A stretch of DNA of 64,000 nucleotides from the IMG/VR virus record IMGVR_UViG_3300021375_000017, positions 28,002 through 92,001 of that record; one strand, given 5' to 3'. The position numbers and the translations under genes were made by a program. The notes under the pieces were generated by a model that saw only the letters and a program-made list of their open reading frames with translations, did not search any database and was not told the DNA's origin. This DNA comes from a virus. Of the stretch, positions 13,177 to 28,802 are shown one piece after another; within the stretch, counting starts at the first letter, position 1, and the number at the start of each line of letters is the position of its first letter.

Positions 13177-14352
13177 ATGTGGATTGAAAAAGAAACAACA
13201 ATTGCTGAAATCAAAACATTACTTGATAATGGATATGAAGTAGAAGTTGATTCTCCCGATGGATATGTTCCAGTTAATTTCTTTATTAACAAAGGAATGT
13301 ATGATGAATATGTTTTGAGAATCGATGGCATTGATGAACTTATAAGATGCAATGCCAATCATTTATTTCAGACATCTTTGGGGTGGATGAGTGCATCGCA
13401 TCTTTATAAAAAATATAAAATAATGCATTTTTTAACCGAGAGTGGTTATAAACTTGGTAGTGTATTTAAAACAGGAAATCAAATACCTATTGTTGATATT
13501 AATGTAAATCATCCAAATCACAGGTATTATACTAATGGAGTTTCTTCTCATAATACTGGCGTCGGGAAATCTCTATTCATGTGCCATGTGGCTAGCTCCG
13601 TCTTGCTCCAAGGGAGGAACGTTCTCTACATTACAATGGAGATGGCAGAAGAGCGCATTGCTGAAAGAATTGATGCGAACCTCTTGAATGTAAATATCCA
13701 GGAAATTGTTGACCTTCCAAAACAAATGTTTGAAACAAAGGTTACAAACCTGGCACAAAAGACTCAAGGTCACCTAATTATTAAGGAGTATCCTACTGCC
13801 TCTGCTCATGCTGGACACTTCAAATCACTTCTTAATGAACTTGCACTTAAGAAGTCATTTCGACCTGATATTATTTTCATTGATTACCTTAATATATGTT
13901 CTTCCGAAAGATATCGCGGAAATAGCACTGTCAATTCATATTCATATATTAAAGCAATTGCTGAAGAACTTAGAGGACTTGCTGTTGAAGCAAACGTCCC
14001 TATCATATCTGCCACTCAGACCACTCGTTCTGGTTATGGTAGCTCTGACGTTGAGCTTACTGACACTAGTGAGTCCTTTGGTCTCCCTGCTACTGCTGAT
14101 CTTATGTTTGCCCTTATTTCGACTGAAGAGTTGGAATCGTTGGGACAAATACTTGTAAAGCAATTGAAGAATAGGTATAATGATTACTCTGTCCATAGAC
14201 GTTTTGTTGTTGGTATTGATCGTGCCAAGATGAGATTATATGATTGTGAACAGTCTGCACAGGATGACCTTCTTGACAATGGTAAGGAAGAAGAGTACAA
14301 TAATGATGAACAAGAAAAACCTAAAAAATCATTTAGTGGATTTAAATTTTAA
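13177..14352 (+). CDS. gp41: split intein C-fragment (126 aa, 13177-13554) fused to gp41 helicase C-half
   Basis: CNANHLF block B, IVDINV...YYTNGVSSHN|TGVGKS (Thr+1); IDYLN, SATQT, KNRY helicase motifs. Confidence 0.93.
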   Translation: MWIEKETTIAEIKTLLDNGYEVEVDSPDGYVPVNFFINKGMYDEYVLRIDGIDELIRCNANHLFQTSLGWMSASHLYKKYKIMHFLTESGYKLGSVFKTGNQIPIVDINVNHPNHRYYTNGVSSHNTGVGKSLFMCHVASSVLLQGRNVLYITMEMAEERIAERIDANLLNVNIQEIVDLPKQMFETKVTNLAQKTQGHLIIKEYPTASAHAGHFKSLLNELALKKSFRPDIIFIDYLNICSSERYRGNSTVNSYSYIKAIAEELRGLAVEANVPIISATQTTRSGYGSSDVELTDTSESFGLPATADLMFALISTEELESLGQILVKQLKNRYNDYSVHRRFVVGIDRAKMRLYDCEQSAQDDLLDNGKEEEYNNDEQEKPKKSFSGFKF

Positions 14353-14756
14353 TGACTGTAAATACTGAAGCATATCTTGAATTTGTCAATGCCGTCACCT
14401 CACAACAAAGTAAAGATCACGAAGCATTCCTCTATCGTCTTCAAGAATTGGAAGGCCAAGAGTTTCCTACCGAGCGACTGTTTACTGCTGCTGTAGGAAT
14501 GTCTGCTGAGGCAGGTGAGTTTACTGAAGTTGTCAAGAAGATCGTCTTCCAAGGTAAACCAGTAAATGAAGAAAACTTATTTCATCTGAAACGTGAACTT
14601 GGTGATATTATGTGGTATGTTGCTCAAGCGTGTATGGGTCTTGATACGACCATTGATGAAATTATTGAGATGAATGTTGAGAAACTGAAGTCTCGTTATC
14701 CTGGTGGAGAATTTTCCGTAAAACATTCCGAAGTCCGAAAGGAAGGTGATGTATGA
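14352..14756 (+). CDS. mazG: MazG-like NTP pyrophosphohydrolase
   Basis: EAGEF.E..KK...ELGDIMWY. Confidence 0.92.
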   Translation: MTVNTEAYLEFVNAVTSQQSKDHEAFLYRLQELEGQEFPTERLFTAAVGMSAEAGEFTEVVKKIVFQGKPVNEENLFHLKRELGDIMWYVAQACMGLDTTIDEIIEMNVEKLKSRYPGGEFSVKHSEVRKEGDV

Positions 14757-15448
14757 CCTACGACTTCTCATTTGCACATTCACCTGAAGGATTTGATAAT
14801 CATATCAACGATAGTATTCGTGGATATTCAAACCTCCTAGAAGATACTGTATCGTTCTCTCGATACTTTGTGGAGGATCATACTAAAGTTGTTGATGTTG
14901 GATGTTCAACTGGTAAACTTACCAAGATGATTATTGACAACAATCCTAATCGTCAGTACGCACATTATGTGGGTGTAGAACTTGCTGGTAGTTTTTATGA
15001 TGATCTTGAGGAACGTCATATAGAGGTTCGTAAAGAATACCCTGGTGCATTGTTAGAATGGGTTCGTGGTAATGTCACTAACTATGAGTTCAAGAACTGT
15101 TCTCTAGTAACATCACTGTTTACTCTACAGTTTATGCCCAAGACTACCAGACAAGATACGATCAATAAGATCTATAATGGTCTCAATGAAGGTGGTGCAT
15201 TTATCTTTGCTGAGAAGTTGATGTGTGAGAATGCATTCTTTCAAGAACTTCTTACCTTTAATCATTATGATTACAAGAGAAAGACTTTCAGTGCAGAACA
15301 AATCATGGATAAGGAGAAACAACTTCGTGATATGTTGAAACCTAATACATGGTCTGAACTAAGAGATATGGTGATGACTGCGGGGTTCAAAGACTGTCAG
15401 ATCTTCTGGAGAAACCATCAGTTCGTTGGAGTTATTGCAATTAAGTAA
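14753..15448 (+). CDS. cmoA: CmoA-like carboxy-SAM synthase (class I SAM fold)
   Basis: F.F.....FD.HI..SI.GYSN, DVGCSTG, FTLQF, GG.FI.AEK, typical of CmoA. Confidence 0.75.
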   Translation: MTYDFSFAHSPEGFDNHINDSIRGYSNLLEDTVSFSRYFVEDHTKVVDVGCSTGKLTKMIIDNNPNRQYAHYVGVELAGSFYDDLEERHIEVRKEYPGALLEWVRGNVTNYEFKNCSLVTSLFTLQFMPKTTRQDTINKIYNGLNEGGAFIFAEKLMCENAFFQELLTFNHYDYKRKTFSAEQIMDKEKQLRDMLKPNTWSELRDMVMTAGFKDCQIFWRNHQFVGVIAIK

Positions 15449-16845
15449 TGTGTGGAATTATTGGTGGATTTGATATTCCACAAATTGAAAAAGGTTTGAA
15501 CTCTATTATTCATAGGGGACCAGATAACCAACAGATTGTCCAAATGGAGAACATCTATTTTGGACATGTTCGTTTGTCTATTATTGATACTAGTAATGAG
15601 TCAAATCAGCCATTTGTTTATGGTGACACCACCATGATCTTCAATGGTACCATTTGGAACTATCGTGAGTTAAGAGAAGAATTGAATATTGAAACAAAGA
15701 CTTCAGGTGACACTGAGGTACTTTGTGCTATCTTGGATAGGTATGGTATTGAAGGATTGAATAAAGTTCAAGGAATGTTTGCCATTGCATTTACTCAAGG
15801 AGACGGTTCTATTACTATTGTGAGAGACCGTCATGGTGAAGTTCCTCTTCATTACTCTCTCCTTACAGGTCTCTTTCCATCATTCTCTTTCTGTTCAGAG
15901 ATCAAAGGTCTTTTGGCAATGGGGGAGATTGGTAAAACAGTTAAAATGTTAGAACCCGGATCATTTATTAAGGTTTCCTCTGATTACTCTGTAAAAGAGG
16001 GGTATTGGTATAACGTCAGAGAACATATCGAAGATACTTCTACATGGAACTTTAATGATTCTAAAGCGATGGTTTATAGAAACATTGTGATGGGTTCATT
16101 TGAAAGAACTGTTGCCGATGTTCCTGTTGCATGCTTACTCTCTGGTGGTATTGATTCTGCTATCACAACTCTCATTGCATCTAAACACATCCCAAACTTG
16201 GTGACATATACTGCAGTCCATGATGAGAACTCAAAAGATTTAAAGTCTGCTAGAAAAGTTGCTAAATATTTGGGAGTTGAACTCCGAGAAGTTATAGTTC
16301 AACCACCTACCATCGATGATGTTAATGATGTTATCAATACCATTGAGATGCCATATAAGGCCCAAGTAGAGATTGGATATCCTTGTATTCAACTTGCAAA
16401 AAGAATCCATGAAGATGGTTTTAAGGTGATTATGTCAGGTGAAGGTAGTGACGAACTCTGGGCATCCTATGGTATGAGTTACCATGGTATTAAGGATAAA
16501 GGTTGGACTGACTATAGAATAGGACTCTTTGGTTCACAACATCGTAAAAATTTCACAAGATGTAATAAGATTTTTATGAAGTATGGTATTGAATGTAGAC
16601 TACCTTTTTTAAACACTCAGTTAGTAGAGACTGCACTTGGTCTCAGTCAAGATACTGTTTGGGACGGTAAAGCTAGACCTAAAGCAATTCTCCAAGAGGC
16701 TTTCAGAGGTCAACTCCCAGATGATATTGTTGATAGAAAGAAGGTAGCATTTCAGGATGGTATGGGAATCAAATCTCTTTACGAAGACATTGTAGATTCT
16801 CCAAAAACATATTACACTAAACACTATAAGAAACAGTTCTCATGA
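15448..16845 (+). CDS. asparagine synthetase B-like glutamine amidotransferase
   Basis: N-terminal MCGI, HRGPD, RLSIID, SGDTE, LSGGIDS PP-loop, SGEGSDE, RLPFL. Confidence 0.9.
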   Translation: MCGIIGGFDIPQIEKGLNSIIHRGPDNQQIVQMENIYFGHVRLSIIDTSNESNQPFVYGDTTMIFNGTIWNYRELREELNIETKTSGDTEVLCAILDRYGIEGLNKVQGMFAIAFTQGDGSITIVRDRHGEVPLHYSLLTGLFPSFSFCSEIKGLLAMGEIGKTVKMLEPGSFIKVSSDYSVKEGYWYNVREHIEDTSTWNFNDSKAMVYRNIVMGSFERTVADVPVACLLSGGIDSAITTLIASKHIPNLVTYTAVHDENSKDLKSARKVAKYLGVELREVIVQPPTIDDVNDVINTIEMPYKAQVEIGYPCIQLAKRIHEDGFKVIMSGEGSDELWASYGMSYHGIKDKGWTDYRIGLFGSQHRKNFTRCNKIFMKYGIECRLPFLNTQLVETALGLSQDTVWDGKARPKAILQEAFRGQLPDDIVDRKKVAFQDGMGIKSLYEDIVDSPKTYYTKHYKKQFS

Positions 16846-18011
16846 AACTCCCCTACAAATTACAAGATGTTTATGACGGTGAAGCTCAACAGAAGTTCAC
16901 TGTCATTTCTACGTTCGCTGGTGGAGGTGGTTCGTCCACTGGTTATCGTCTTGCAGGTGGTAAGATCCTCTGTATCAATGAGTTTGTAGAAGAGGCAAGA
17001 AATACTTATTCCGAGAATTATCCATCTACTACTATTTTACCTGGTGATATTAAGGAGTTGACAGGTAAAGACTTCCTTGAAGCCACTGGTCTCAAACAAG
17101 GAGAACTTGATATTCTTGATGGTTCACCACCATGTTCTGCATTCTCTGTTGCAGGTTCAATGTGTCATAACATCTATGAAGAAGAGAGGGTAGACTTATT
17201 TGGAAACACCTACACCACTAGAGTTAGTGGTAAACATTCTGATGGTTGGGGAAAGACAAAAACTTATTCTGACGGTAAACAAGTTGAAAATATTGAAGAT
17301 TTGTTTTTTGAATATATCCGTATAGCAAAAGACATTCAACCAAAAGTAATTGTTGCAGAGAATGTCAAAGGATTGACTGTTGGTGAAGCTAAAACATACT
17401 ATGCAAAGATTACAAATGCATTTACAGAAATTGGATACCTAGTCACTTCTAAAGTAATGAAAGCATCAAATCATGGTGTGGGACAAGGACGGGAGAGACT
17501 TATCTTTATTGGAGTTCGTGAAGATATTGCAGATAAGATCGGAATGTTGATTACTGGAGTCAATAGTATATTTCCCAGACCTTCAAAAGAATCAACTACA
17601 ATTTCTGATATCATTGATGGTGTTGAGAATAATTCTGAAGATGTTAAAACTCTTACTGAAAAGTTGGTAAGTAGTAACATATACAAAAATGTTATCAGTA
17701 AGATGCCCAAGAATCCAGATAAAGTTTTGACTGGTATGGACTATCACCCTAAAGGACATTGTTTTAATACAAAGAGAGTCTCTTTAAAAAAACCATCTCC
17801 AACTCTTACTGCTAGTGGTGGTTTGATTCATTGGAACGAAGATCGTCCATTGACTGTTCCAGAACTTAAACGTATTCAATCACTTCCTGATGACTTTGTT
17901 TTGACTGGTACATATTCTCAACAGTCTGAAAGAGTGGGTAGAATGGTTCCACCTCTGATGATGAAAGCAATAGCAGAAAACATTTACAAAGAAGTCCTAT
18001 CTAAACTATAG
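16842..18011 (+). CDS. DNA cytosine-C5 methyltransferase-family enzyme, predicted carboxymethyltransferase
   Basis: FAGGGG (I), GSPPC (IV), ENV (VI), Q.RER (VIII), RIQSLPDDF (IX); motif X reads VGRMVPP. Confidence 0.85.
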   Translation: MKLPYKLQDVYDGEAQQKFTVISTFAGGGGSSTGYRLAGGKILCINEFVEEARNTYSENYPSTTILPGDIKELTGKDFLEATGLKQGELDILDGSPPCSAFSVAGSMCHNIYEEERVDLFGNTYTTRVSGKHSDGWGKTKTYSDGKQVENIEDLFFEYIRIAKDIQPKVIVAENVKGLTVGEAKTYYAKITNAFTEIGYLVTSKVMKASNHGVGQGRERLIFIGVREDIADKIGMLITGVNSIFPRPSKESTTISDIIDGVENNSEDVKTLTEKLVSSNIYKNVISKMPKNPDKVLTGMDYHPKGHCFNTKRVSLKKPSPTLTASGGLIHWNEDRPLTVPELKRIQSLPDDFVLTGTYSQQSERVGRMVPPLMMKAIAENIYKEVLSKL

Positions 18012-23704: not shown

Positions 23705-24463
23705 ATGGCACTTTGGGGAAATAATGACAATGTAGATAGCGTAGGTGCTGTCGTCCTAGATTATGATACTGGTGTTGTTACTGGAACCGGTACTTCTTTT
23801 GGCCAGACCGGATCTGCTCAAGAGGGTGATGTACTCCGTTTTGGCACTAAGGCAACTACTTACTTTGGTGATGCAGTAATCGTTTCGATTGCATCTACCG
23901 TCCAATGTACTATTGGTTCTACTGCAGGTCTTTCTGGTGCCGCTATTGCCGGTGTACAGTTCGGAGTATCACAACTTCCAAAATATACTATTCTTGACAA
24001 TACATACAGTGAAACAAGAGCAGAAAATACATCTTTACTTGCAATTGTAAATACTTCGACCAGTACTATAGCAGTTGGTGGAACCACATTGATTCCTGTA
24101 ACTTCTGCTGAGGGAATCATTGTCGGAGATAGTCTTGAGGGTCCAACGTTCTCATCAACTTTAATTTCTGTTGTAGCTGATACACAACTGACTCTTGCAA
24201 GTGCTATTGGTGCAGGTGCTACCGTTAGTGCTGGTGCTGCACTCACAGTCAGTAGAGCACAAGGTGGGTATGATGCATTTGTTTACGGTACTAATGAAGT
24301 TTCGACTGAAGCTGAAACAGGTACTCAATATGAACTAACTCATGGTGGTTGGGTTGGTGTTACAACTTATACTGATAATGAAGGTAATTTGAGAGTTAAG
24401 AAAGAAACTCTGGTCGCAATGTCTGGTATTACCACAGGCGGAACAGACTACCACACTCCCTGA
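23705..24463 (+). CDS. probable virion structural protein
   Basis: MALWG start, G/T/S-rich, HGGWVG...RVK.E.LVAM; late promoter TATAAATA at 23665. Confidence 0.7.
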   Translation: MALWGNNDNVDSVGAVVLDYDTGVVTGTGTSFGQTGSAQEGDVLRFGTKATTYFGDAVIVSIASTVQCTIGSTAGLSGAAIAGVQFGVSQLPKYTILDNTYSETRAENTSLLAIVNTSTSTIAVGGTTLIPVTSAEGIIVGDSLEGPTFSSTLISVVADTQLTLASAIGAGATVSAGAALTVSRAQGGYDAFVYGTNEVSTEAETGTQYELTHGGWVGVTTYTDNEGNLRVKKETLVAMSGITTGGTDYHTP

Positions 24464-24469
24464 TAAGTA

Positions 24470-24862
24470 ATGATTTTCAATGAATTGAACGAAGGGAATT
24501 TCCTTCTCTTTGCTATTAAATATTATGAAAATCCTCAGGCCTTAACAAAGGAGGATTTTAATAAAGACTTGAATCACTTCAAGTATATTAAGAGACTCCT
24601 GAAAAGATATAAGAATAGCGGTGAACTAAAGATACACTTACTGATAAATCACTTTATCATATTGTATAATATCTTTGGTGATGCCGCTACTCCTATGTTG
24701 TTTTATAAAATTGAAAAAGATCTGTGGACAACTGTAAAAACATTCATTGTTTTTATGGACAAACTACCTGAGTATCCTCATACTTATATTCATGATATTG
24801 AGATGGATCAAACATGCCTAGAAGAACTGGAGCGAGTTACCAATGGACAAGGACAAGATTGA
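24470..24862 (+). CDS. conserved T4-like hypothetical protein
   Basis: NF.LFA.K.Y.NP...F..DL..FKYIKRL. Confidence 0.75.
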   Translation: MIFNELNEGNFLLFAIKYYENPQALTKEDFNKDLNHFKYIKRLLKRYKNSGELKIHLLINHFIILYNIFGDAATPMLFYKIEKDLWTTVKTFIVFMDKLPEYPHTYIHDIEMDQTCLEELERVTNGQGQD

Positions 24863-25166
24863 TAAGTTTGTAGATGCATTTCGTTCAGCAATGTATAATG
24901 AGTTCAGTGTCAATGAGGAAGGCATGGTGGCAAATCCTCCTGGGGGATCTGGTGGATTTAGTGGTTCCTCCGCTGCTGCTGGTCCTACTGCTGGTTACGA
25001 CCCCGTTATGAAATTGGATGGTAGAAATAAGTATGTTAGAAAGGCTATCAAAGATTTGATGGATAGGAAACAGAAGAGAGTAGATAAGAAGGCTAAGAAA
25101 AAAGCATTAGAATTTAACCCATACTTCAAACCCTTCAATGGATCAGGTAAAGGTAGCTCTAATTGA
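24843..25166 (+). CDS. hypothetical protein
   Basis: Overlapping ORF in the operon. Confidence 0.65.
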   Translation: MDKDKIDKFVDAFRSAMYNEFSVNEEGMVANPPGGSGGFSGSSAAAGPTAGYDPVMKLDGRNKYVRKAIKDLMDRKQKRVDKKAKKKALEFNPYFKPFNGSGKGSSN

Positions 25167-26505: not shown

Positions 26506-28802
26506 GCAACGGTATCAAGGTACAAAAAAGAAATGGTGATGTAGAGAAACTAGACCTGGACAAAATGCATCTCATGGTTGATGAGGCATGTAAAGATCTT
26601 GCAGGAGTCTCAGCATCACAGGTAGAGATGACATCTGGTATTCAGTTCTACGATGGTATTACTACTGATGAGATTCAAGATATTCTTATCCGTAGTGCCA
26701 GTGACCTGATTGATTTGGAACATCCAAACTATCAGTTCGTTGCTGCACGTCTTCTTCTATTCACTCTTCGTAAGCAAGTCTTTCAGAATAAGAAAGGTGA
26801 TGCTCCTGGGTTGAGGGAACATATTGAGAAGTGTGCATATAATGATCATTACGATAAACAGATTTTTGAAAAGTATTCTCTTGAAGAGATTGATAAGGTA
26901 AATACTTTTATCTACCATGATCGTGACATGTTGTTTACCTATGCTGGTCTTCGCCAGGTAGTTGACAAGTATCTGGTTCAAGATCGTAGTACTGGGGAAG
27001 TGTTTGAGACCCCTCAGTTCATGTATATCATGATTGCCCTTACCATCTTTCAGGATTACCCAAAGGAGACCCGTCTTGACTACGTCAAAAGATACTACAA
27101 CGCAATCTCCAAACATCGACTCAACATCCCCACACCAATCATGGCGGGAGTTAGAACACCACTTAGACAATTTGCTTCTTGTGTTCTTGTTGATGTTGAT
27201 GACTCCCTCGATTCTATCTTTAGCTCTGATATGGCTATTGGCAGATACGTTGCACAAAGGGCGGGTATCGGTATCAACGCAGGTAGAATCCGTGGCATCA
27301 ACGCTAAAATCAGAGGTGGAGAAGTGCAGCACACAGGTGTTGTTCCTTTCCTTAAAAAGTTTGAATCAACTGTACGATGCTGCACGCAAAATGGGATTCG
27401 TGGTGGATCAGCAACAGTCCACTTCCCCATCTGGCACCAAGAAATAGAAGATATTATTGTTCTCAAGAACAATAAGGGTACAGAAGACAACCGAGTGAGG
27501 AAACTTGACTACTCAATCCAAATTTCAAAGATTTTCTACGAACGTTTCATTGCGAATGGAGAGATTAGCTTATTCTCACCGCATGACGTACCGGGCTTGT
27601 ATGATTCCTTTGGTACTGATAGGTTCGATGACCTATATGTTGGTTTTGAACGAGATGAGTCTATTCCAAGAAAGACTATCGGAGCACAAGAACTCTTTCT
27701 AGATCTTCTGAAAGAGAGAGCAGAGACTGGTCGTATCTACATTATGAATATCGACCACTGTAATAGTCACTCTTCCTTCAAGGACAAGGTGAACATGAGT
27801 AACCTGTGTCAAGAGATTACACTTCCGACAGACCCTATCAATCACATTGATGATGTTGTTGGTGAGATTGCTTTATGTATTCTGTCTGCAGTTAATGTGG
27901 GCAAGATTCGTTCTGATGAGGAACTTGAAGATTTGTGTGATCTTTCAGTCCGTGGTTTAGAAGAACTGATAGACTATCAGGAGTATCCTGTAAGGGCCGC
28001 AGAGATAGCTACAAAGGCCCGTAGATCCCTTGGTGTAGGTTTCATTGGTCTTGCACACTATCTGGCTAAACTGGGGCATAATTACGACAGTCAAGAGGCA
28101 TGGGATGCCGTTCATCAACTCTCAGAATCCTTCCAGTATTATCTTTTGAAGTCTTCAAATGAACTTGCTAAAGAAAAAGGACATTGTGAATATTTTGGTA
28201 GAACGAAGTATGCAGACGGGATCCTTCCTATTGACACATACAAGAAGGACGTGGACGAAGTTTCATCACAGGAGTTACAGCATGATTGGGAGAGTCTACG
28301 ATCATCTATATCCACCCACGGACTTAGACACTCAACACTGTCTGCTCAGATGCCATCAGAAAGCAGTTCCGTTGTGTCAAACGCAACAAATGGAATTGAG
28401 CCACCTAGAGACTATCTGTCCATTAAGAAAAGCAAAAAGGGTCCGCTTAAGCAGATTGTTCCACAGTATGGTTCTCTTAAAAACAACTATACTCTTCTTT
28501 GGGACATGGCTTCTAATCGTGGTTATATCAATGTTGTAGCAGTGATGCAGAAGTTCTTTGACCAAGCCATCAGTGGTAACTGGTCTTATAACCCTGAGAA
28601 CTACCCTGATAATGAGGTTCCAGTCTCTGTAATGGCACAAGACTTCTTGACAACATACAAGTTGGGATGGAAGACTAGTTATTATCAGAATACATATGAT
28701 ATCAAGACTGATGAAGCACCAGAAGAAACTCCCGAACTTCAAAATCTCCTAAATGATATTATGGAGTCCGATGAGGACGATTGTGAAAGCTGTAAAATTT
28801 AG
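26502..28802 (+). CDS. nrdA: class Ia ribonucleotide reductase alpha subunit
   Basis: ATP cone, PTP.MAG, SNLCQE, C-terminal CESC. Confidence 0.98.
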   Translation: MSNGIKVQKRNGDVEKLDLDKMHLMVDEACKDLAGVSASQVEMTSGIQFYDGITTDEIQDILIRSASDLIDLEHPNYQFVAARLLLFTLRKQVFQNKKGDAPGLREHIEKCAYNDHYDKQIFEKYSLEEIDKVNTFIYHDRDMLFTYAGLRQVVDKYLVQDRSTGEVFETPQFMYIMIALTIFQDYPKETRLDYVKRYYNAISKHRLNIPTPIMAGVRTPLRQFASCVLVDVDDSLDSIFSSDMAIGRYVAQRAGIGINAGRIRGINAKIRGGEVQHTGVVPFLKKFESTVRCCTQNGIRGGSATVHFPIWHQEIEDIIVLKNNKGTEDNRVRKLDYSIQISKIFYERFIANGEISLFSPHDVPGLYDSFGTDRFDDLYVGFERDESIPRKTIGAQELFLDLLKERAETGRIYIMNIDHCNSHSSFKDKVNMSNLCQEITLPTDPINHIDDVVGEIALCILSAVNVGKIRSDEELEDLCDLSVRGLEELIDYQEYPVRAAEIATKARRSLGVGFIGLAHYLAKLGHNYDSQEAWDAVHQLSESFQYYLLKSSNELAKEKGHCEYFGRTKYADGILPIDTYKKDVDEVSSQELQHDWESLRSSISTHGLRHSTLSAQMPSESSSVVSNATNGIEPPRDYLSIKKSKKGPLKQIVPQYGSLKNNYTLLWDMASNRGYINVVAVMQKFFDQAISGNWSYNPENYPDNEVPVSVMAQDFLTTYKLGWKTSYYQNTYDIKTDEAPEETPELQNLLNDIMESDEDDCESCKI

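Follow-up and report, generated by a model that had tools for sequence, protein, structure and literature searches.

Motif X of the DNA cytosine C5-methyltransferase (C5-MTase) encoded at 16842-18011 of the window carries an arginine in place of the usual asparagine, and the gene lies downstream of a cmoA homologue and an asnB-like gene. This raises the question whether the enzyme transfers a carboxymethyl group from carboxy-SAM (Cx-SAM) instead of a methyl group from SAM, and which base finally results in the phage DNA. By the window we mean the whole stretch of 64,000 nucleotides analysed here, positions 28,002 to 92,001 of a 92-kb IMG/VR virus record (IMGVR_UViG_3300021375_000017) which is about 48% complete. 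Its source is a T4-like cyanomyovirus, related to the Synechococcus phages S-B43, S-B05, RN05-S, RB11-B and S-CRM01. Between 13177 and 18011 five genes follow one another on the (+) strand, with stops overlapping the next starts. Genes and motifs referred to below are:

13177..14352, + strand: DnaB/gp41-like helicase part, first of the five genes (Pfam/NCBIfam); the DnaB_C match (Pfam) starts about 125 residues after the ORF start
14352..14756, + strand: mazG-like pyrophosphohydrolase (Pfam PF03819); its stop overlaps the start of cmoA downstream
14753..15448, + strand: cmoA, carboxy-SAM synthase, 231 aa (class I methyltransferase fold; identity to SpCmoA of phage S-B43)
15448..16845, + strand: glutamine-hydrolysing AsnB-like amide ligase, 465 aa, in the CmoY slot (Pfam GATase_6/7 and Asn_synthase)
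16842..18011, + strand: cmoX, predicted DNA cytosine C5-carboxymethyltransferase, 389 aa (PF00145, match to 8YF3)
17124..17138, + strand: motif IV SPPCS with catalytic Cys98; Ser99 replaces the canonical Gln (alignment to HhaI Gln82)
17166..17216, + strand: 17-aa insertion in the active-site loop, residues 109-125 (gap in the 8YF3 alignment)
17265..17270, + strand: Tyr142-Ser143 of the active-site loop, signature of the Arg class (102/103 Tyr, 100/103 Ser)
17928..17954, + strand: motif X ERVGRMVPP, residues 363-371 (Arg367 codon AGA at 17940-17942)

The MazG-like gene is widespread among cyanomyoviruses without cmoA and cmoX. We treat it as a mere upstream neighbour, its position implying no membership in the pathway.

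Based on the sequence comparisons described below, we read 16842-18011, with a probability of about 0.9, as an orthologue of CmoX in a pathway leading from CmoA via CmoX to an AsnB-like amidation, as proposed. In such a pathway the phage CmoA would convert SAM and prephenate to carboxy-SAM. CmoX would flip out a cytosine, Cys98 would attack C6, and the carboxymethyl group of Cx-SAM would be passed on to C5, with Arg367, in place of the motif X Asn, binding the carboxylate of the cofactor. The product of CmoX would be 5-carboxymethylcytosine in DNA. The AsnB-like enzyme would most likely adenylate this carboxylate and then amidate it with glutamine-derived ammonia released by its N-terminal Cys2 glutaminase domain, and the product of the ligase would be 5-carbamoylmethylcytosine. 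If confirmed, this product would add a new base to those occurring naturally in DNA and be the DNA counterpart of ncm5U in tRNA.

The motif X arginine and the orthologue of phage S-B43

The methyltransferase (389 aa) matches Pfam PF00145 (E=2e-54) and carries SPPC at residues 95-98. In agreement with the original prediction, sequence and translation both give ERVGRMVPP for motif X, with Arg367 at 17940-17942. HMMER aligned residues 295-304 of M.HhaI to residues 358-367 of the window protein, placing Arg367 on Asn304, so that the predicted substitution of the motif X Asn was recovered; Ser99 fell on Gln82 of PCQ. The motif X column is Asn in HaeIII (IGNAVP) and DNMT1 (VGNAVPP), too. For M.MpeI (4DKJ) the phmmer alignment spans residues 161-282 only, and the equivalence to Asn374 was taken from PMC12783734. 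Instead of the canonical signature of C5-MTases forming 5mC (G-N-[AS]-V and P-C-Q), the window enzyme exhibits G-R-M-V and P-C-S.

The arginine is invariant across 74 unique close homologues of 38-100% identity. We furthermore inspected the 150 nearest 50%-identity cluster representatives, 146 of them alignable at motif X. Here 101 carry Arg, 36 Asn and five Leu, with one each for Lys, Tyr, Met and Asp. Since Arg is invariant in the 74 homologues and common in the nearest representatives, the swap at position 367 is not chance variation.

Among solved structures the best match of the window CmoX was PDB 8YF3 (E=3.6e-194; 79.6% identity over 372 aligned positions). This is SpCmoX, the CmoX of Synechococcus phage S-B43 (Yang et al., Nat Commun, Dec 2025, PMC12783734). 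Foldseek, run with an AF2 model of the window CmoX (pLDDT 90.3), likewise ranked 8YF3 first (E=1e-52, TM 0.96), followed by HhaI and HaeIII. Motif X ERVGRMVPP, SPPC and the cofactor contacts are identical in the two proteins, and both genes follow cmoA in the genome of a T4-like cyanomyovirus. Window Arg367 aligns to Arg350 of SpCmoX; the two numberings are offset by a 17-aa insertion that the active-site loop of the window protein contains and that of SpCmoX lacks.

The original prediction assumed that a natural basic residue at this position binds the carboxylate. This holds for the orthologue: in 8YF3, solved at 1.9 A, Arg350 is in contact with the carboxymethyl group of the bound Cx-SAM (PMC12783734). 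Wild-type SpCmoX accepts Cx-SAM as sole cofactor and not SAM, and its product is 5-carboxymethylcytosine (5cxmC) at GC motifs (PMC12783734). Of the contact and catalytic residues listed in that paper (Phe25, Glu47, Phe48, Asp69, Cys98 and the Arg; PMC12783734), all are present in the window protein, Cys98 as part of SPPC, and they are invariant in the 74 homologues except for one gap at Phe25.

A precedent named in the original prediction, the use of Cx-SAM by M.MpeI after an engineered exchange of Asn for Lys, is correct (N374K), and M.MedI N377K is a similar case, Cx-SAM use again going together with a basic residue in place of the motif X Asn (PMC12015181, PMC12783734). These engineered enzymes contain Lys, not Arg, retain methylation, keep the canonical PCQ and target CG. 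In the natural enzymes, by contrast, the catalytic Cys is followed by Ala or Ser and the loop contains Tyr-Ser, and SpCmoX is exclusive for Cx-SAM.

That the arginine marks the use of Cx-SAM is hence correct, but already known from an enzyme with 80% identity. Replacement of this Asn by Arg has been published as the diagnostic feature of natural DNA carboxymethyltransferases, and the window therefore adds one more member and no new principle. From the sequence similarity we infer that the cofactor chemistry, the Arg contact and the ligation on DNA, which were demonstrated for the orthologues, would apply to the window proteins as well. The amine used by the window ligase, the order of the steps and the target sequence of CmoX (GC in S-B43) are deduced, too.

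The specificity or kinetics of the window CmoX may differ from those of SpCmoX, because the target-recognition region shows only 64% identity and the active-site loop contains the 17-aa insertion. This insertion directly follows motif IV and was modelled as a hairpin of low confidence (pLDDT about 50-67). Eight of the 74 unique homologues share it, and four others have a related variant of 17 aa. In 8YF3 about 39 residues are unmodelled (333 of 372 present), presumably those of a flexible active-site loop.

Alternatively, the enzyme might be an ordinary SAM-dependent 5-methylcytosine methyltransferase, in which Arg367 is neutral variation. The complete C5-MTase fold and set of motifs would fit such an enzyme. 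We give this explanation next to no credence, since the Arg is invariant in the lineage and tightly linked to cmoA (see below), and since the 80%-identical orthologue refuses SAM.

Association of the arginine with cmoA

The cmoA gene of the window is located two genes upstream of cmoX. Its product is 85% identical to SpCmoA of S-B43 across all 231 aa, and the top NCBIfam match is TIGR00740 CmoA (1.6e-31, under the curated cut-off). SpCmoA was assayed and is a Cx-SAM synthase with a kcat of 2.33 per s (PMC12783734). The census in the same study comprises 5,615 candidate CmoX proteins with SPPC and Arg, and 4,257 CmoA genes in their contigs (PMC12783734).

We compared the gene context of 109 distinct methyltransferases of the SPPC clade, pooled from IMG/VR loci that were retrieved with the alignments of Asn-type and Arg-type representatives. 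Among the 96 Arg-type enzymes, 77 have a match to the CmoA HMM of at least 60 bits in the locus, usually right beside the methyltransferase gene and in the same orientation. A weaker match was found for 13 further Arg-type enzymes and none for the remaining six. For the Asn type, 0 of 13 showed any CmoA-HMM match in their IMG/VR loci (Fisher p=1e-12 against the Arg type, a value overstating independence because the sequences are related, although the pattern is still clean). The expectation that G-R goes along with an adjacent cmoA is thereby met with 90 of 96 Arg-type against 0 of 13 Asn-type viral methyltransferases having cmoA in the locus. A scan of 85 putative CmoA ORFs gave a match to NCBIfam TIGR00740 in every case.

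Isolated phages exhibit the same association. Arg-type cyanophages, Streptomyces phage TurkishDelight, Pseudomonas phage PaBG and Erwinia jumbo phages carry a CmoA homologue. No cmoA was found in nine isolated lineages without the Arg, namely YongM, phi3Ts, P37 and Fnu1 (Asn), phi18:3, LoVEphage, BMBtp14 and Fpv5 (Met) and Melnitz (Leu). The single Arg-type isolate without a CmoA match (at E<=1e-6) is Moraxella phage Mcat8 (L131), whose genome of 40.7 kb is of temperate size. Its Arg-type enzyme, encoded at 23862-24932 of KR093632.1, contains MGRMVAP and SPPCS and is 45% identical.

As six pooled Arg-type enzymes and that of Mcat8 have no phage cmoA in the DNA examined, the Arg is not strictly dependent on a phage-borne synthase. 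The host CmoA could supply the cofactor where the phage gene is missing. By analogy to SpCmoX, which obtained Cx-SAM from the E. coli CmoA when produced in E. coli, the Mcat8 enzyme may rely on the CmoA of its host.

In the Erwinia and Dickeya jumbo phages (L139), a distance of about 19 kb separates cmoA (about 12.3-13.4 kb) from the Arg-type domain (about 31-34 kb). This domain is the C-terminal part of a protein of about 710 aa, and its motif IV region shows no SPPC in the alignment. Either a rearrangement of the domain or an error in the alignment might account for this.

The glutamine-type ligase and the order of the steps

The gene between cmoA and cmoX encodes a relative of asparagine synthase. 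The NCBIfam search matched AsnB PRK09431 with 4e-79 (266.6 bits, cut-off 499), and PDB 1CT9 (AsnB) matches residues 20-442, covering both domains (E=4e-43). We rejected an assignment as asparagine synthase proper, since the score of 263.7 bits for the equivalog TIGR01536 lies under the curated cut-off of 267.1. The window ligase has the same two-domain fold as E. coli AsnB (1CT9), with glutaminase residues and PP-loop (SGGxDS) conserved, but its C-terminus is about 90 aa shorter, and its acceptor is presumably the carboxymethyl group on DNA instead of aspartate. Cys2, Arg42, Asn66-Gly67, Asp88 and the PP-loop SGG[IV]D (SGGID at residues 232-236 of the window ligase) are the same in all of 46 unique homologues, which reach down to 41% identity. 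Residue 68, by contrast, is Thr in the window ligase, and Thr, Ala, Cys or Glu occur among the homologues. Its counterpart in E. coli AsnB is Glu76. The AlphaFold model of the ligase, built from a 16-row alignment, reached a mean pLDDT of 57.5 and was left out of the fold search.

In S-B43 the slot between cmoA and cmoX is occupied by the gene of SpCmoY, an ATP-dependent ligase which joins glycine to 5cxmC already present in DNA (PMC12783734). Both ligases have a PP-loop domain of the asparagine-synthetase type. SpCmoY, however, comprises 271 aa without a GATase domain, whereas in the window ligase (465 aa) a class II glutamine amidotransferase domain is present and intact. A ligase of the glycine type was thus rejected for the window, the identity to SpCmoY being 21% and confined to the synthetase part, with an extra glutaminase domain of 200 aa. 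A search of the 92-kb record (about 48% complete) for an S-B43-type glycine ligase retrieved nothing but the glutamine-type ligase, as a weak match. The neighbour of cmoX in the window is of another ligase type than that in S-B43.

The window ligase is a member of the second ligase cluster described with SpCmoX (A0A7T0Q3R0), which is predicted to use glutamine-derived ammonia and of which soluble protein was unobtainable (PMC12783734). Its nearest relative among isolated phages is gp124 of TurkishDelight, presumably the A0A7T0Q3R0 protein. It is 41% identical over the full length, contains glutaminase and synthetase parts and is encoded beside an Arg-type transferase and CmoA. Unlike in the window, the order of genes is cmoX, ligase, cmoA, with two ParB-like genes upstream. 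This group of five genes (two ParB-like, Arg-type transferase, glutamine-type ligase, CmoA) lies at the genome end of TurkishDelight (L004, 88490-93518). ParB-like genes are found beside the transferases of PaBG and BMBtp14, too. Our literature search for carbamoylmethylcytosine in phage DNA gave only the prediction in PMC12783734.

The ligase might attach an amine other than glutamine-derived ammonia, e.g. an amino acid, so that the final base would not be 5-carbamoylmethylcytosine. SpCmoY, the sole ligase of this system assayed so far, uses glycine. Furthermore, Thr at residue 68 differs from Glu76 of E. coli AsnB, this residue varies among the homologues, and the ligase scores just below the asparagine synthase cut-off. 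We nevertheless regard another amine as unlikely. The invariance of Cys2, Arg42, Asn66-Gly67 and Asp88 in 46 homologues would be difficult to understand if the enzyme had no glutaminase activity, SpCmoY has no glutaminase domain at all, and glutamine-derived ammonia is what PMC12783734 predicts for the second cluster as well.

The type of ligase varies among cyanophages. Of 72 typed unique CmoX contexts from cyanophage contigs, 51 have a glutamine-type ligase in the slot that separates cmoA from cmoX, 18 a glycine-type ligase and three no ligase. Genes similar to that of SpCmoY (79-95% identity) occupy the slot in other contigs. On the CmoX tree the ligase type switches at least 11 times, while the Arg and the cofactor contacts stay fixed. 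The glutamine-type cassette is thus common in marine cyanophage contigs, and the window represents a natural intact example of the type which the authors of PMC12783734 could not express.

Across the IMG/VR cyanophage contigs (L005-L130) the ligase appears as a swappable cassette. One contig (L013) is a mosaic, in which ligase and CmoA are 98-99% identical to those of the window and CmoX, without the insertion, 81%. In six contigs (L102, L104-L107 and L110) an extra 1.1 kb is located between the ligase gene and cmoX.

The fixed contacts bear on the order of the steps. Since the Arg and the other contacts are invariant across ligase types, CmoX should use the same donor whatever the ligase, and this supports amidation after the transfer to DNA, as shown for SpCmoY. 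It might alternatively be that amidation comes first, the ligase turning Cx-SAM into carbamoylmethyl-SAM and the transferase moving the amide to DNA. Since cmoA, the ligase gene and cmoX are translationally coupled, their arrangement does not tell which step comes first. We consider amidation before transfer very improbable. A carboxylate-binding Arg would be purposeless for an amide donor, yet it is invariant together with glutamine-type, glycine-type or no ligase. In addition, SpCmoX takes Cx-SAM directly and SpCmoY works on DNA already carboxymethylated. Amidation after transfer, which the original prediction had deduced from the arginine, thus stands for the glycine-type ligase, as SpCmoY acts on 5cxmC in DNA; for the glutamine-type ligase of the window the order would probably be the same.

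Second-site residues and other motif X variants

The exchange at motif X is accompanied by changes in the active site. In the Arg class, 88 of 103 enzymes have Ala or Ser at position 99, directly behind the catalytic Cys; in the Asn class, 29 of 36 have Gln. Tyr142 (102 of 103) and Ser143 (100 of 103) are nearly constant in the Arg class, while both positions are variable or absent in the Asn class. On a tree of the cluster representatives, built with the columns of motif X, position 99 and the loop masked, Arg and Asn interchange at least 13 times. In about seven of eight independent pairs position 99 shifts along with motif X, and in none does it shift the other way (p about 0.016 in a sign test). 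The corresponding test for Ser143 gave a p of about 0.03. Judged from these alignments, the switch to Arg covaries with positions 99 and 143, and the cofactor switch appears to have arisen many times in this methyltransferase clade. The main text of PMC12783734 does not discuss the covarying positions (99, 142-143).

According to the original prediction, an exchange of the Arg for Asn should restore methylation. The orthologue contradicts this, as SpCmoX R350N is inactive with SAM as well as with Cx-SAM (PMC12783734). A cofactor switch requiring several residues would explain why R350N is inactive and not a methylase. We lean slightly towards the combined view that the cyanophage cassette may make 5-carbamoylmethylcytosine and that the cofactor switch involves several residues (Asn to Arg, Gln to Ala or Ser, and Tyr-Ser). 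The covarying second-site residues are concrete targets for the design of cleaner carboxymethyltransferases for methylation sequencing.

Besides Arg and Asn, other residues occur at motif X. The set of these variants comprises P0022, P0012, P0016, P0018, P0024, P0057, P0067, P0038, P0075, L132 (Melnitz-3), L133, L136, L137 and L138, and none of the cases from isolated phages has cmoA. Leu is found in Methylophilales phage Melnitz and four representatives, and Met (GMSVPP) in phages of Cellulophaga, Bacteroides, Flavobacterium and Bacillus; Tyr and Asp occur, too. A natural Lys is present in P0022, whose motif X GKSVPP makes it the natural twin of the engineered N374K.
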